Assembly: GCA_905233585.1 (NCBI GenBank)
Contig: CAJOFD010000004.1
Location: 14,374-78,373, forward strand
Length of the DNA stretch: 64,000 nucleotides
DNA from: an uncultured Bacteroidales bacterium
GTDB lineage: Bacteria; Bacteroidota; Bacteroidia; Bacteroidales; WCHB1-69
Direction: 5' to 3'
Numbering within the stretch: the stretch's first letter is position 1; the number at the start of each line of letters is the position of its first letter. The notes beneath the pieces were generated by a model. It had not been told where the DNA came from, searched no databases, and worked only from the letters and a program-made list of their open reading frames with translations. Shown piece by piece: positions 22,959 through 46,020 of the stretch. Both the position numbers and the translations under genes were made by a program.

Positions 22959-23264
22959 TTATTCTTCTATCCGTTCCAGCAAAAAACTCACAGGCCGGAA
23001 GCCGTCATTGCAACTAATCATCGCCGAGTGGGGGTTTTGCATCCAGCCGTCAAAGAAATTGCCGTTGCCTTTGGACAATTCTTCAACGAAGTAACGCATA
23101 CTTTCCCAAGCGCTGTCGCAGAGTCCTTCGGGTTGCCTGCCCTGATGGGCGATATAGACCATACCCTCGGCGATATCGCAGGCGTGGGCGATGGGATTTT
23201 CGTATCGGGCTTGCAGGTCGCTGTAATCGGCCTTGCGGATTACGGTGATTTTTACGTCGTACAT
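22959..23264 (-). CDS. Small conserved protein, TIGR04076-like
   Basis: 101 aa: MYDVKITVIRK...EGLCDSAW...ISCNDGFRPVSFLLERIEE. This matches my memory of the TIGR04076 family (KITV start, C..AW, C.DG.RPV.F.LERI). The upstream ORF-track extension to 23510 crosses repeats and has no support. Confidence 0.6.
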   Translation of the reverse strand: MYDVKITVIRKADYSDLQARYENPIAHACDIAEGMVYIAHQGRQPEGLCDSAWESMRYFVEELSKGNGNFFDGWMQNPHSAMISCNDGFRPVSFLLERIEE

Positions 23265-23282
23265 CTTGTTTGGTTTGGTTTG

Positions 23283-23290
23283 CAAAGGTA
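23283..23290 (-). promoter_or_regulatory. Bacteroidota -7 box TACCTTTG (minus strand)
   Basis: The reverse complement of CAAAGGTA is TACCTTTG, 19 nt upstream of the ATG at 23264. Confidence 0.5.
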
Positions 23291-23300
23291 ATAAAAAAAA

Positions 23301-23326
23301 TTGAGAGTTGAGAGGTGAGCGTTGGG
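23301..23326. repeat. TTGAGAR heptamer block, inverted relative to the blocks at 26723-26751 and 26826-26861
   Basis: TTGAGAGTTGAGAGGTGAGCGTTGGG matches the reverse complement of 26836-26861 (TTGAGAATTGAGAAATGAGAATTGAG) at 20/26 by hand alignment. All mismatches are G/C versus A. Confidence 0.6.
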
Positions 23327-23344
23327 AAAAAACCTCAGCCCCGA

Positions 23345-23367
23345 CCCCTCTCCACACTGGATAGGGG
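23345..23367. repeat. GC-rich stem-loop (CCCCTCTCC-acact-GGATAGGGG)
   Basis: 9-bp stem with one mismatch in an otherwise AT-rich spacer. It resembles the GGAGAGGGG/CCCCTCTCC hairpin repeats common in Bacteroidota and cyanobacterial intergenic DNA. Confidence 0.5.
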
Positions 23368-23535
23368 AGGATGTGAAAAATAATTTTGTTACCATATATT
23401 ATATTAATATAATGTAATAATAATTTTTTTGTATGGATAACCCCCTTTTTGATATTATACAACTTTCTTTGATGACCCCAAAGAAAGTATTGAAACCGTA
23501 TTTTTTTCATATTTATTCCATACGAATAAGAATAA

Positions 23536-23649
23536 CTCTCAATTGGCTTCGCCCATTTTGCATCGTGTCTCGGAGTAGTTTAGCCTTGTTAAAACAAGTT
23601 TAAGCTCTCCACTTGACATTGGCAAATTTATAAACACTCAATTCTCATT
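23536..23649 (+). repeat. ~110-nt intergenic repeat, copy A
   Basis: CTCTCAATTGGCTTCGCCCATTTTGCATCGTGTCTCGGAGTAGTTTA...AACAAGTTTAAGCTCTCC...ATTGGCAAA...CTCAATTCTCATT aligns by eye at roughly 85% with 26745-26835. Copy A carries an extra GCCTTGTTA that completes a CTTGTT/AACAAG hairpin. Confidence 0.7.
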
Positions 23650-23665
23650 AATTAATATAAGGTAT

Positions 23666-24016
23666 AAAAATTTTATTCCGCAAATATATTTTTCTATTAT
23701 TTTATACTTGCGGAATGTTCCGCAAATACCAAATTTTGTATTTTTTTGCTTGCGGGCGACCCGCAAATACTACTTTATATATTTTTGTACTTGCGGGCGA
23801 CCCGCAAATGGTACTTTTTATATTTTTGTACTTGCGGAGAGTTCCGCAAATACTACTTTATATATTTTTGTATTTGCGGGCGACCCGCAAATACTACTTT
23901 TTATATTTTTGTACTTGCGGAGAGTTCCGCAAATACTATTTTATATATTTTTGTACTTGCGGGCGACCCGCAAATCATATTTTTTATTTTTTTTATACTT
24001 TTATAAAATTCCGTAA
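23666..24016 (+). repeat. Tandem array of 41/42-bp units (7 intact plus 2 degenerate), each with a 7-bp-arm GC-rich palindrome and a TATTTTTG box
   Basis: Palindromes lie at 23708-25, 23750-66, 23791-807, 23832-49, 23874-90, 23915-32 and 23957-73. In-register degenerate units lie at 23666-83 and 23999-24016. The consensus unit is TTGCGG(G-CGA-C / A-GAGT-T)CCGCAAATACTACTTTATATATTTTTGTAC. Confidence 0.9.
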
Positions 24017-24037: not shown

Positions 24038-24045
24038 TATCTTTG
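24038..24045 (+). promoter_or_regulatory. Bacteroidota -7 box TATCTTTG (promoter of the 24094 gene)
   Basis: TAnnTTTG 49 nt upstream of the ATG. The surrounding TTATATCTTTGCA is homologous to the spacer TTATATATTTTTGTA of the array units. Confidence 0.55.
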
Positions 24046-24093: not shown

Positions 24094-24957
24094 ATGTCAG
24101 AATTTACAAAATTTGATAAGACAAGACTTACAAATGCTTTACACGTAGAATTTATGTTTTTGTTCAAAGAAAAATTGTCCGCAACTGACCCAGCAGGCAA
24201 TGAGGAACTCGAAAATTTTTTTTCTGCTTTCAGTGAAGCATACGATGAAGAAAACCGTTGCTACAAAGTCTCTCAAGGTAGCGATTTGACACCAACTATC
24301 AACCAAATTGATGATGACAGAGACCATGTTTATTCCTGTTTTCGCAATATCGTCAATGCTTGGGCAAATAACAGTGTTCATGCAGAAGAACAAGCCTCTG
24401 CTTTGAAGCTTAGGAGTGTCATCAATCTTTACAAGATAGACAACAATCAACAAAAAGATGAGCAAACAAGCCGTATCCGCAATCTGATTGAAGATTTGCA
24501 GAATGCTGAAATGCAACCCCATCTTACCAAATTGCACCTTGAGGCACTTATGCTGACTTTAGAGGACAAGAATTTGGAGTTTGCGTCCCTAATTGAACAG
24601 CGCAATACCGAAAACGGTCTCAAACAGAAAGGTGCTTTACGTCAGGCAAGGCTCAATATTGACGCTATATACGATGAACTTTTGGATTATATGGAAGCAG
24701 CCGAACGTTTTACTCACGCGGTGGCTTACACCAATTTCATTGACAGCTGGAACAATACCATTAATTATTATGTGAATATACTCGACCGCAAATCGTATAA
24801 CTATTCAGATAATAATGATGACAATAACAATCAAGATGATAACAACGAAGACGAAACTGATGACCAAAACGGTAATGGCGGTACCACTTCAGTAGACAAT
24901 CAAATTGTTACTGATCTGGATAATGGAACCGTTGTTTTTGATGGAAGTAATCAATAA
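24094..24957 (+). CDS. Hypothetical protein with helical N-terminal body and Asp/Asn-rich C-terminal tail
   Basis: 287-aa ORF with its own -7 box and a strong terminator. The start (KTRLTNALHVEFMF...) and the RD/NL..DL pattern resemble a Bacteroidota-restricted uncharacterised family (possibly DUF6261, unverified). The tail reads NYSDNNDDNNNQDDNNEDETDDQNGNGG. Confidence 0.6.
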   Translation: MSEFTKFDKTRLTNALHVEFMFLFKEKLSATDPAGNEELENFFSAFSEAYDEENRCYKVSQGSDLTPTINQIDDDRDHVYSCFRNIVNAWANNSVHAEEQASALKLRSVINLYKIDNNQQKDEQTSRIRNLIEDLQNAEMQPHLTKLHLEALMLTLEDKNLEFASLIEQRNTENGLKQKGALRQARLNIDAIYDELLDYMEAAERFTHAVAYTNFIDSWNNTINYYVNILDRKSYNYSDNNDDNNNQDDNNEDETDDQNGNGGTTSVDNQIVTDLDNGTVVFDGSNQ

Positions 24958-26726: not shown

Positions 26727-26861
26727 TCAACTTTCAACACTCATTTCTCAATTGGCTACGCCCATTTTGCTTCATGTCTCGGAATAGTTTAAACAAGTTT
26801 AGCCTCTCCGCTCGCTATTGGCAAAATTCTCATTTCTCAATTCTCATTTCTCAATTCTCAA
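26719..26861 (+). repeat. ~110-nt intergenic repeat, copy B, flanked by TTCTCAA/TTTCTCAA heptamer runs
   Basis: ATTCTCAACTTTCAACACTCATTTCTCAATTGGCTACGCCCATTTTGCTTCATGTCTCGGAATAGTTTAAACAAGTTTAGCCTCTCC...ATTGGCAAAATTCTCATTTCTCAATTCTCATTTCTCAATTCTCAA. Confidence 0.7.
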
Positions 26862-26880
26862 TTGGCTCGTGTTTCGGGAA
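26857..26880 (+). repeat. Truncated third copy of the repeat 5' end
   Basis: CTCAATTGGCTCGTGTTTCGGGAA corresponds to CTCAATTGGCTACGCCCATTTTGCTTCATGTCTCGGAA with an internal deletion. Confidence 0.45.
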
Positions 26881-45624: not shown

Positions 45625-45698
45625 GCCACTGTAGCTCAGTTGGCCAGAGCAGCTGATTTGTAATCAGCGGGTCGGGGGTTCGAATCCCTCTAGTGGCT
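45625..45698 (+). tRNA. tRNA-Thr (anticodon TGT)
   Basis: GCCACTGTAGCTCAGTTGGCCAGAGCAGCTGATTTGTAATCAGCGGGTCGGGGGTTCGAATCCCTCTAGTGGCT. Anticodon loop TTTGTAA. Confidence 0.9.
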
Positions 45699-45721
45699 CA
45701 GTTCTTTGTTTTTTGTTGAAT

Positions 45722-45803
45722 GGGGGGATACCAGAGCGGTCAAATGGGGCAGACTGTAAATCTGTTGGCGCAGCCTTCGGAGGTTCGAATCCTCCTCCCC
45801 CCA
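45722..45803 (+). tRNA. tRNA-Tyr (anticodon GTA)
   Basis: GGGGGGATACCAGAGCGGTCAAATGG..CAGACTGTAAATCTG plus a long variable arm, then GGAGGTTCGAATCCTCCTCCCCCCA. Confidence 0.9.
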
Positions 45804-45866
45804 CGATAATAAAGAAATGGAACGGCAATAAAAGTATATTTTTGTTGCGGTTTTTTCTTATTGTTT

Positions 45867-45939
45867 GCGGAAGTAGCTCATTTGGTAGAGCGAAAGCCTT
45901 CCAAGCTTTAGGTGGCGGGTTCGAGCCCCGTCTTCCGCT
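45867..45939 (+). tRNA. tRNA-Gly (anticodon TCC)
   Basis: GCGGAAGTAGCTCATTTGGTAGAGCGAAAGCCTTCCAAGCTTTAGGTGGCGGGTTCGAGCCCCGTCTTCCGCT. Confidence 0.9.
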
Positions 45940-45948
45940 CAGGCAAAA

Positions 45949-46020
<72 letters not shown>

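Follow-up and report, generated by a model that had tools for sequence, protein, structure and literature searches.

A tandem array of short palindromes lies directly upstream of a DUF6261 gene in a 64,000-nucleotide (nt) stretch of DNA from an uncultured Bacteroidales bacterium (contig CAJOFD010000004.1; hereafter the window, meaning the whole stretch that was analysed). A preliminary description of the window had drawn attention to this array and had placed it upstream of an orphan gene starting at 24094. The position is borne out; the gene, on the other hand, belongs to a family, DUF6261 (PF19775), with ∼1,300 representative clusters. We consider the best explanation to be that the window array is a local copy of an old repeat family, recognised by its TTGCGG arms, whose home is the 5′ flank of Bacteroidales DUF6261 genes, and that this TTGCGG family belongs in turn to a larger class of 40-43-bp palindrome-bearing minisatellites. 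The features of the array and of the gene are as follows (strand given where one was assigned).

23676-23993: tandem array, period 41/42, seven intact units plus degenerate ends (Tandem Repeats Finder and repeat search)
23708-23725: palindrome 1, A-type, TTGCGGA-ATGT-TCCGCAA (exact search)
23750-23766: palindrome 2, G-type, TTGCGGG-CGA-CCCGCAA (exact search)
23791-23807: palindrome 3, G-type (exact search)
23832-23849: palindrome 4, A-type, TTGCGGA-GAGT-TCCGCAA (exact search)
23874-23890: palindrome 5, G-type; with its flanks, an 11-pair stem GTATTTGCGGG..CCCGCAAATAC
23915-23932: palindrome 6, A-type (exact search)
23957-23973: palindrome 7, G-type, followed by a T-rich run; terminator-like score on the + strand
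23999-24016: degenerate promoter-proximal unit with the right-arm remnant TTCCGTAA, ending 21 nt before the −7 box
24038-24045, + strand: −7 box TATCTTTG of the predicted DUF6261 promoter, Bacteroidota TAnnTTTG type, kept in the 85% and 70% orthologous loci
24094-24957, + strand: DUF6261 (PF19775) gene, 287 amino acids; product all-alpha with an acidic D/N-rich tail (Pfam, AlphaFold2 model)

An exact pattern search confirmed seven palindromes of the form TTGCGG(G/A)-loop-(C/T)CCGCAA, with starts at 23708, 23750, 23791, 23832, 23874, 23915 and 23957, in agreement with the preliminary description. The pattern TTGCGGR-N3/4-YCCGCAA occurs at seven sites in the window, all of them within the array, against a chance expectation of 0.01 (no shuffle gave seven). 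Tandem Repeats Finder (TRF) reported 7.6 copies of period 41 (score 372) over 23676-23993, and also 3.8 copies of period 83, while a separate repeat search of the array returned spacings of 41, 42, 41, 42 and 41. The two palindrome classes proposed earlier are present with the sequences given for them, TTGCGGG-CGA-CCCGCAA (17 nt) and TTGCGGA-GAGT/ATGT-TCCGCAA (18 nt), the first having G:C as its innermost pair and a loop of 3 nt, the second A:T and a loop of 4 nt. Start-to-start distances along palindromes 1-7 are 42, 41, 41, 42, 41 and 42, an alternation that arises because the loop is 3 or 4 nt long while the inter-palindrome spacer stays constant at 24 nt. The in-register end units that retain only a right arm were likewise found, at 23676-23683 (TTCCGCAA) and 24009-24016 (TTCCGTAA). 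No further copy of the palindrome or of the spacer was detected in the other 63.7 kb of the window. When a dimer of units was folded, the right arm of one unit could also pair with the left arm of the next, enclosing the spacer; this is an ambiguity built into such arrays, and it is evidence for neither fold.

The DUF6261 protein of the window is present on seven metagenome contigs, three of which break inside the array. The preliminary description had allowed for an assembly artefact; the array is not an artefact as such, being found in independent assemblies of the same species (L001 and L002; fetched sequences are cited by L numbers). The order of A- and G-type units is A,G,G,A,G,A,G in the window and A,G,A,G,A,G,G in L001, and L002 holds only four units, so that copy number looks variable, with both the number and the order of units differing between assemblies. 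Because contig breaks are the usual effect of repeats on short-read assembly, we regard copy-number variation of the array as likely, not proven. Gene callers place 'hypothetical proteins' of 121-202 amino acids across arrays (L001 9622-9987, L152 933-1541, L154 182-673 and L159 10-456); these calls, such as the one of 121 amino acids in L001, are almost certainly spurious open reading frames (ORFs) made by the repeats.

The sole close relatives of the window DUF6261 protein, at 85% and 70% identity, also carry arrays. The 85% orthologue (L027-L029) is preceded by five TTGCGGG-TCG-CCCGCAA and two TTGCGGA-ACAC-TCCGCAA units separated by the 24-nt spacer ATGCTACTTTTTACAATTTTATGC, and its loops are approximately the reverse complements of those in the window. 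Upstream of the 70% orthologue (L030) are four or more A-type units with spacers of 23 nt; 21 nt separate the last intact palindrome from the TATCTTTG box of that locus, the same distance as that of the degenerate unit in the window. The loops have changed from CGA to TCG and from GAGT to ACAC or GTAT. Across the orthologues, then, the arms, the spacer length of 23-24 nt, the position relative to the promoter and the promoter itself are kept, while the loops and the spacer sequence are free to change.

This pattern of conservation bears on the origin first suggested for the array, serial duplication of a module made up of an operator and a −7 box. Since the arms, unit length, position and promoter are kept but the loops and spacers are free, such a module is not supported: the spacer ATGCTACTTTTTACAATTTTATGC of the 85% orthologue contains no TAnnTTTG, and the spacers of GC-richer relatives have no TA-box at all. 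Nor does every spacer in the window carry a −7 box, as had been claimed. The motif TATTTTTG, which matches TAnnTTTG, is found in five of the seven, on the strand of the 24094 gene, and this is what speaks for a stack of promoters in which each unit would combine an operator with a Bacteroidota −7 box and give rise to hairpin-initiated transcripts. We consider such tandem promoters highly improbable. No TTTG −33 element lies within 30 nt upstream of any spacer box, and the AT-rich window contains a TAnnTTTG about once per kb on each strand regardless of the array. Among the orthologous arrays, those of L027-L029 lack the box and that of L030 has it displaced by 10 nt; GC-richer families are without it. 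The predicted promoter of the gene, TATCTTTG, lies 48 nt before the ATG; its proposed homology to the spacer boxes is weak because it stands 8 nt out of their register (a count made on the sequence). A repeated Bacteroidota sigma-A promoter (−33 TTTG/−7 TAnnTTTG) was accordingly rejected as an identity for the unit, with the box in five of seven spacers, no −33 TTTG and no box in L027-L029.

The association with DUF6261 extends well beyond these orthologues. Eight DUF6261 genes were sampled by protein homology and length of contig only, without reference to the repeat, and seven of them have their own array of period 41/42, of 6.7-10.2 copies, ending 40-135 nt before the ATG; each of these seven arrays bears a different palindrome. 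Against a background of ∼56 non-ascertained arrays per 1.14 Mb, the binomial probability of seven in eight is ∼6e-9 at a base rate of 5%, and the coupling to DUF6261 is therefore not chance. Three further DUF6261 paralogues, met by chance in flanking sequence, have upstream arrays of the same period with other palindromes. Palindromes at paralogues include TTTTGAG-g-CTCAAAA (L122), CGATATAC-a-GTATATCG (L140) and CCCCG-t-CGGGG (L078). Arrays of the 41/42-base class thus stand directly upstream of DUF6261 genes far more often than expected by chance.

The TTGCGG family itself shows the same arrangement. At those of its loci that lie outside transposable elements (see below), ∼7 lineages with differing spacer types have a DUF6261 gene at a distance of 45-160 nt, its 5′ end turned towards the array, and the DUF6261 proteins at TTGCGG-bearing loci can be as little as ∼24% identical to that of the window. 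On a neighbour-joining tree, TTGCGG arrays accompany two clades of DUF6261, again with members only ∼24% identical to the window protein; because these loci were found through the arms, the correlation with clades is only suggestive. No shared TTGCGG..CCGCAA operator was found upstream of DUF6261 genes that have other array types. Locus L152 contains one solo TTGCGGG-cttga-CCCGCAA. DUF6261 pseudogene remnants were looked for beside orphan TTGCGG arrays and none was found.

Several DUF6261 loci are unusual in their own right. In L156, two adjacent period-41 arrays with related units (3-948 and 988-1405; 23 and 10 copies) lie upstream of one DUF6261 gene, the 23-copy array being the longest seen. 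One DUF6261 paralogue is flanked by arrays on both sides, with a period of 42/43 ∼515 nt upstream and a different period-43 array 68 nt past the stop codon (L071 1268-1581, L149 1261-1395, L070 4380-4879 and L134 10289-10461). In the 803-nt upstream segment L153, a perfect (CA)29 microsatellite (336-393) is situated between a consensus promoter box and a 41-nt array upstream of DUF6261.

The DUF6261 product offers few clues of its own. Its AlphaFold2 model is a confident nine-helix bundle with a disordered tail (mean predicted local distance difference test score, pLDDT, 87.5). Foldseek searches of the PDB and BFVD with this model returned generic helical bundles only, with no match at E<0.001; a PDB sequence search, PHROGs and NCBIfam gave nothing informative, and PADLOC yielded only weak coiled-coil-like matches (E 2e-4 or worse). 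Isoelectric points (pI) in the family range from 4.4, in the window, to >9 in members with lysine/proline-rich tails. Judged by its model, DUF6261 is not an obvious nucleic-acid binder, though it may be one.

To delimit the TTGCGG family, a two-palindrome TTGCGG...CCGCAA pattern was run against metagenome contigs, giving at least 120 loci; the family counts that follow rest on the matches listed. Each locus holds 2-9 palindromes at a spacing of 41/42 nt, which becomes 82-84 nt across a degenerate unit. Of 402 neighbouring palindrome pairs in 124 arrays, 339 have a 24-nt spacer, irrespective of loop length. The compensatory change at the innermost arm pair, first noted between the two classes in the window, recurs throughout the family: among 526 units the pair is G..C in 339, A..T in 116, A..C in 32 and G..T in 28. 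Spacer consensus sequences fall into at least 14 mutually unrelated groups. Since spacer length is fixed and spacer sequence is not, it is the arms and the unit length that are constrained, and not the whole unit; at DUF6261 genes the family keeps 12 arm bases while all else drifts. Units with variant arms, TTGCGC...GCGCAA, a compensatory double change at arm position 6, were seen in L075 (1500-1640, minus-strand view). A search of genome contigs with ATTTGCGGRN{3,4}YCCGCAARTAC gave 21 single matches in unrelated taxa where ∼17 are expected, with flanks too narrow to reveal relatives, and viral contigs gave no match.

The largest spacer group comprises 75 of the 120 listed loci, most of which have ACGTGAGTTCGA on the left, ∼105-205 nt away, and TCGAACTCACGT on the right, at ∼85-175 nt. 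Both sequences are terminal inverted repeats (TIRs) of the ISPg3, MITE239 and MITE700 type, matched to a published TIR table (PMC4596501). In this lineage, judging from its termini, the array rides in an IS5-type MITE (a miniature transposable element with inverted-repeat ends), which explains why several copies are found on a contig: BNJS01001910.1 has three arrays (L039, L076, L087) and BNJU01002603.1 has two. The other 45 listed loci, the window included, are without such inverted repeats and have ordinary genes as neighbours (a DegT aminotransferase, a MurF-Alr fusion, the glutamyl-tRNA synthetase GluRS, a patatin, OEP, ThiD with a thiamine pyrophosphate (TPP) riboswitch, a CLC channel). 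No TIR of the ISPg3 or ISPg1 type was found within 700 nt of the window array.

The period is not confined to TTGCGG. TRF was run over all fetched Bacteroidales DNA (1.14 Mb) and returned 55 arrays of period 41, 77 of period 42, 5 of period 40 and 12 of period 43, with almost none elsewhere above 27. In that DNA, 162 arrays resolve into 54 unrelated sequence families, and ∼56 of the 162 are without TTGCGG altogether. The spacing of about four helical turns per unit, pointed out in the preliminary description, is thus a strongly conserved property of the whole repeat class. A dyad with arms of at least 6 nt is present in 30 of the 54 family consensus units versus 8% of shuffled units, and a second, weaker dyad, offset by about half a period, in 19 of 35 families versus 27% of shuffles. 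For the 34 non-ascertained arrays with both neighbours visible, the flanking genes are co-directional in 20 cases, convergent in 9 and divergent in 5, which is close to random expectation; the class as a whole therefore shows no promoter preference. The window array belongs to a very common class of 41/42-base tandem repeats in Bacteroidales that has hardly been described, and as a class these arrays behave like REP/BOX/MITEPgRS-type repeats: numerous, family-specific, hairpin-capable, length-variable and sometimes mobilised.

Tandem arrays with about half the dominant period, 21-22 nt in 8-11 copies, also occur (L146 436-684, L126 778-1010 and L066 12085-12353) and are reminiscent of the 22/23-nt repeats reported for Porphyromonas gingivalis. 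A 129-nt tandem repeat of 19.9 copies (L070 554-3116) is probably a repetitive coding region.

The abundance of the class raises the question of whether the array has any dedicated function at DUF6261. It might instead be a selfish or near-neutral minisatellite of the kind represented by repetitive extragenic palindromes (REPs) and the bacterial interspersed mosaic elements (BIMEs) they form, or by BOX, BrickBuilt and MITEPgRS, with hairpin-prone units that grow and shrink in number by slippage or unequal crossing-over, evolve in concert and are occasionally mobilised inside MITEs. The number of TTGCGG loci and the presence of several arrays on some contigs, the MITE-borne lineage, the 54 unrelated families with one period, the near-random gene orientations and the differences in unit number and order between assemblies all fit such an origin. 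It would leave unexplained the 5′ arrays at seven of eight DUF6261 genes, a period held at 40-43 nt across unrelated sequences, identical arms beside spacers diverged beyond recognition, and an array position kept in species whose DUF6261 proteins are 70-85% identical. We consider it possible, if doubtful, as a full account. The preliminary description had held that a common dispersed intergenic repeat with no positional preference would speak against a special role; dispersal is largely what we find for the class, with many copies at unrelated intergenic loci per genome (and one in the 64 kb of the window), while the positional preference for DUF6261 remains.

The stems were also examined for signs of a functional RNA. 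In the gene-sense strand, stem mismatches of the G.U type number 54 versus 40 of the A.C type, counts that include some spurious sites let in by the fuzzy matching of short arms; with the two so similar, there is no sign of a strand-specific RNA fold. (Array orientation taken from the T-richness of the spacer is unreliable.) This bears on a module of repeat RNA and protein, in which the array would be transcribed, its 41-nt units would fold into one or two hairpins, and these would be bound or processed by DUF6261, by analogy with type III toxin-antitoxin systems. Consistent with such a module are the family-wide location of the array directly 5′ of the gene, the fixed unit length combined with paralogue-specific sequences, the varied genomic contexts of DUF6261 genes, consensus promoter boxes 240-410 nt upstream and aimed at the array in the window, L152 and L153, the short distance (∼40-50 nt) between array and ATG at some loci, and the terminator-like score of the last window unit with its T-run. 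Besides the lack of a G.U excess over A.C in the stems, it is at odds with the conserved promoter between array and gene in the window clade, with the many orphan arrays that have no DUF6261 remnants alongside, with a DUF6261 helical bundle that is unlike ToxN-type toxins and has no credible PADLOC match, and with the absence of matches to Rfam families. An RNA module of this sort seems to us unlikely.

The hairpins might alternatively terminate transcription, an array of insulators that would stop or pause read-through or stabilise the 3′ ends of upstream transcripts. Four array hairpins are terminator-like on the + strand (7 sites in the region versus 1.5 expected), several family members lie 86-200 nt past the stop codon of a co-directional gene (murF-alr, DegT, OEP), and convergent cases exist. 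In the window, however, the left neighbour is divergent and leaves no evident transcript to terminate. Most families have the T-run 5-7 nt away from the stem, GC-rich ones lack it, and a single terminator would be enough, yet ∼7 units are kept. We consider a terminator or insulator array quite improbable.

Our preferred reading, to which we assign a probability of roughly 0.35, is that the array acts as DNA, a helically phased set of dyad sites that loads a protein beside the DUF6261 promoter. A row of identical dyad-symmetric sites, one per ∼4 helical turns and reaching to around the −33 region of the only true promoter of DUF6261, could load a sequence-specific dimeric or oligomeric protein cooperatively; this loading could set DUF6261 transcription, and the number of units would be free to vary through unequal recombination. 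Where a promoter box lies between array and gene, and in L121, where a TPP riboswitch lies between the array and thiD, the array is upstream of the predicted transcription start. The constancy of the arm sequence, beyond mere complementarity, argues for a sequence-specific reader. The lack of a G.U-over-A.C bias, the promoter downstream of the array and the period near four turns together favour, weakly, a double-stranded DNA substrate. What is shown is the build of the array, the constancy of its arms, of the 24-nt spacer length and of its position, the freedom of loops and spacers, and the link to DUF6261; the existence of a protein reader of the arms, its identity and its effect on transcription are what we infer.

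A number of observations weigh against this reading. Sites of 17 and 18 bp coexist within one array, and a 1-bp variation in the spacing of half-sites is unusual for a rigid dimer and fits a hairpin better. Arrays of the same family and of others are also found between convergent genes and within MITEs, with no promoter there to serve, and in L075 the spacer seems to be reversed with respect to the DUF6261 gene. Because all TTGCGG loci were found with a pattern that requires the arms, the invariance of the arms is in part a matter of ascertainment. Finally, the DUF6261 protein of the window, with a pI of 4.4 (4.9 for the core), is strongly acidic, and no DNA-binding fold was matched by its all-helical model. 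The difference between 17- and 18-bp sites and the acidity of DUF6261 are the main weaknesses of the model.

A related proposal, which we hold to be somewhat unlikely, is that DUF6261 proteins and their upstream arrays form a cognate module in which each paralogue would recognise its own unit, as DNA or as RNA. The fixed unit length would then be set by the geometry of the protein assembly, and arrays that are orphan or carried in MITEs would serve that reader as dispersed secondary sites.

Two other features of the intergenic region lie to the left of the array.

23381-23388, + strand: TAATTTTG, inferred as a possible promoter box 320 nt upstream of the array
23537-23640, + strand: unrelated dispersed repeat of ∼90-100 nt just left of the array, with a second copy at 26745-26845

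The block that follows TAATTTTG is conserved in the 85% orthologue. The dispersed repeat has the form CTCAATTGGCTnCGCCCATTTTGC...AAACAAGTTTA...ATTGGCAAA, with CTCAATT(C) motifs at its edges, and its two copies are ∼80% identical. Since the copy at 23537-23640 is absent from the orthologous region of L028 (the 85% relative), it has the look of a small mobile or MITE-like element that inserted recently. Short tandem 7-nt motifs of the AATTCTC/CTCAACT type are found in intergenic DNA near arrays, in the window at 26825-26863 (AATTCTCATTTCTC x 2.6) and 23301-23324, and in L028 (150-185) and L154 (654-720).

Pfam and NCBIfam annotation of the 10 genes around the array identified AsmA/DUF748, Tex, a TIGR04076 protein, DUF6261, an esterase with a type IX secretion system (T9SS) tail, Tag, an SSF transporter and FKBP isomerases; as stated in the preliminary description, par, rep and recombinase genes are absent from this set. 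The Tex protein falls into a cluster, at 90% identity or more, with MBO4738215.1, annotated as belonging to a Bacteroidales bacterium metagenome-assembled genome. The T9SS-tailed esterase is the next-door gene of the DUF6261 locus. The left neighbour, of the TIGR04076 family, is on the other strand and divergent from the DUF6261 gene. It is called as a 183-amino-acid ORF (22959-23510, minus strand) of which only residues 83-183 match TIGR04076; the ORF is probably over-extended, and the non-coding interval is therefore probably ∼830 bp. A promoter-like box, TACCTTTG, lies inside this ORF on the minus strand at 23290, yet a block upstream of that box (23385-23520) shows good conservation in the locus of the 85% orthologue. 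Elsewhere in the window, four tRNA genes lie within 400 bp (45625-46020), and nine tRNA genes are present in all.

More broadly, repeats of 40-43 nt appear to be a major and essentially unannotated part of the intergenic DNA of these Bacteroidales, one that breaks short-read assemblies and creates spurious ORFs. Their coupling to the 5′ end of DUF6261 genes provides a first handle both on this protein family and on the cause of the fixed unit length. Should the coupling be functional, it would represent a new pair of cis-element and protein, or a copy-number-variable control of expression, in a dominant group of gut bacteria. If the cognate module is true, it would constitute a new Bacteroidales system of repeat plus gene, with a logic comparable to REP-RAYT, ParB-parS and type III toxin-antitoxin.

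Several known systems share part of this organisation. REP/BIME elements in enterobacteria and BOX elements in pneumococcus are short imperfect intergenic palindromes, dispersed and family-specific, sometimes in tandem clusters with alternating types; within BIMEs, REPs alternate in orientation and are tied to the REP-associated tyrosine transposases (RAYTs). The units described here are strictly head-to-tail with a fixed period of 41/42 nt, and their associated gene is DUF6261. No transposase was seen among ∼40 annotated neighbours scanned, and the palindromes do not alternate in orientation.

The centromere sopC of plasmid F, like parC-type sites, resembles the array in its tandem ∼43-bp units with a short inverted repeat, and sopC is a cooperative protein-binding platform. 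By contrast, the arrays studied here lie among chromosomal housekeeping genes, at many loci per genome, with no parA/parB-like or rep genes nearby. A plasmid centromere (sopC/parS/parC) was rejected in the window, no parA/sopA, parB/sopB or parR being present among the 10 genes around the array; so was an iteron origin, with no rep gene in that set, no PHROG match and no viral-contig match, the last two results speaking against phage DNA as well. The five internal spacers differ at only 0-3 of 30 positions compared and no Rfam family for the direct repeats of CRISPR arrays reached threshold, which excludes a CRISPR. Only tRNAs reach the gathering score of Rfam 15 in the window, and a permissive scan of the array gave hairpin noise, so that no known structured RNA was recognised.

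In type III toxin-antitoxin loci (ToxIN, CptIN and TenpIN), repeat length is fixed within a family and repeat sequence is locus-specific; in ToxIN, 5.5 antitoxin repeats of 36 nt lie directly upstream of toxN. The likeness consists in tandem direct repeats of tens of nt directly upstream of a protein gene. The difference is that here a promoter separates the array from the gene, the protein forms a helical bundle and is not a ToxN-like endoribonuclease, and orphan arrays are abundant. The single transcription unit of type III loci is not what we see, a TATCTTTG box being predicted to separate array from gene in the window as well as at the 85% and 70% orthologues. A ToxN/AbiQ-, CptN- or TenpN-like toxin was rejected as well: Pfam recognises only DUF6261, PADLOC matches are weak and Foldseek gives no match at E<0.001.

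The closest precedents come from P. gingivalis. Tandem direct repeats of 41, 23 and 22 nt have been noted in strain W83 (PMC2575886, PMC4596501), and Repeat C of MITEPgRS (MITE464) consists of 41-nt tandem direct repeats in up to 14 copies (Naito 2008, PMC2575886; Klein 2015, PMC4596501), so the statement that no such element had been described in Bacteroidota does not hold. Those reports give Repeat C no function, palindrome or gene association (PMC2575886, PMC4596501). Beyond these two papers, we found nothing in the searchable literature on the repeat sequence, on DUF6261 or on 41/42-bp repeats of Bacteroidetes. Measured against that literature, the breadth of the class, its sharp period of 41-42 nt in sequences that are otherwise unrelated, the conserved TTGCGG…CCGCAA family, the capture of that family by an ISPg3-type MITE and the near-obligate coupling to DUF6261 are apparently new.

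A MITE with an internal minisatellite, of the MITEPgRS or BrickBuilt kind, was rejected for the window array itself, as no TIRs flank it. BrickBuilt is an intergenic minisatellite within a P. gingivalis MITE, with a 23-nt unit and reported promoter activity (PMC4596501); it is similar in being an intergenic minisatellite inside a Bacteroidales MITE, and different in its 23-nt unit, which has no sequence relation to the window array. MITEPgRS differs in its ISPg1-type TIRs, those of the MITEs found here being of the ISPg3 type and the window array having none. Its 41-nt Repeat C is nevertheless the closest published relative, compared by description and not by sequence: like the arrays described here, it is an intergenic tandem repeat of Bacteroidales with a 41-nt unit and a variable copy number, which can sit in a MITE with TIRs of the IS5 family.

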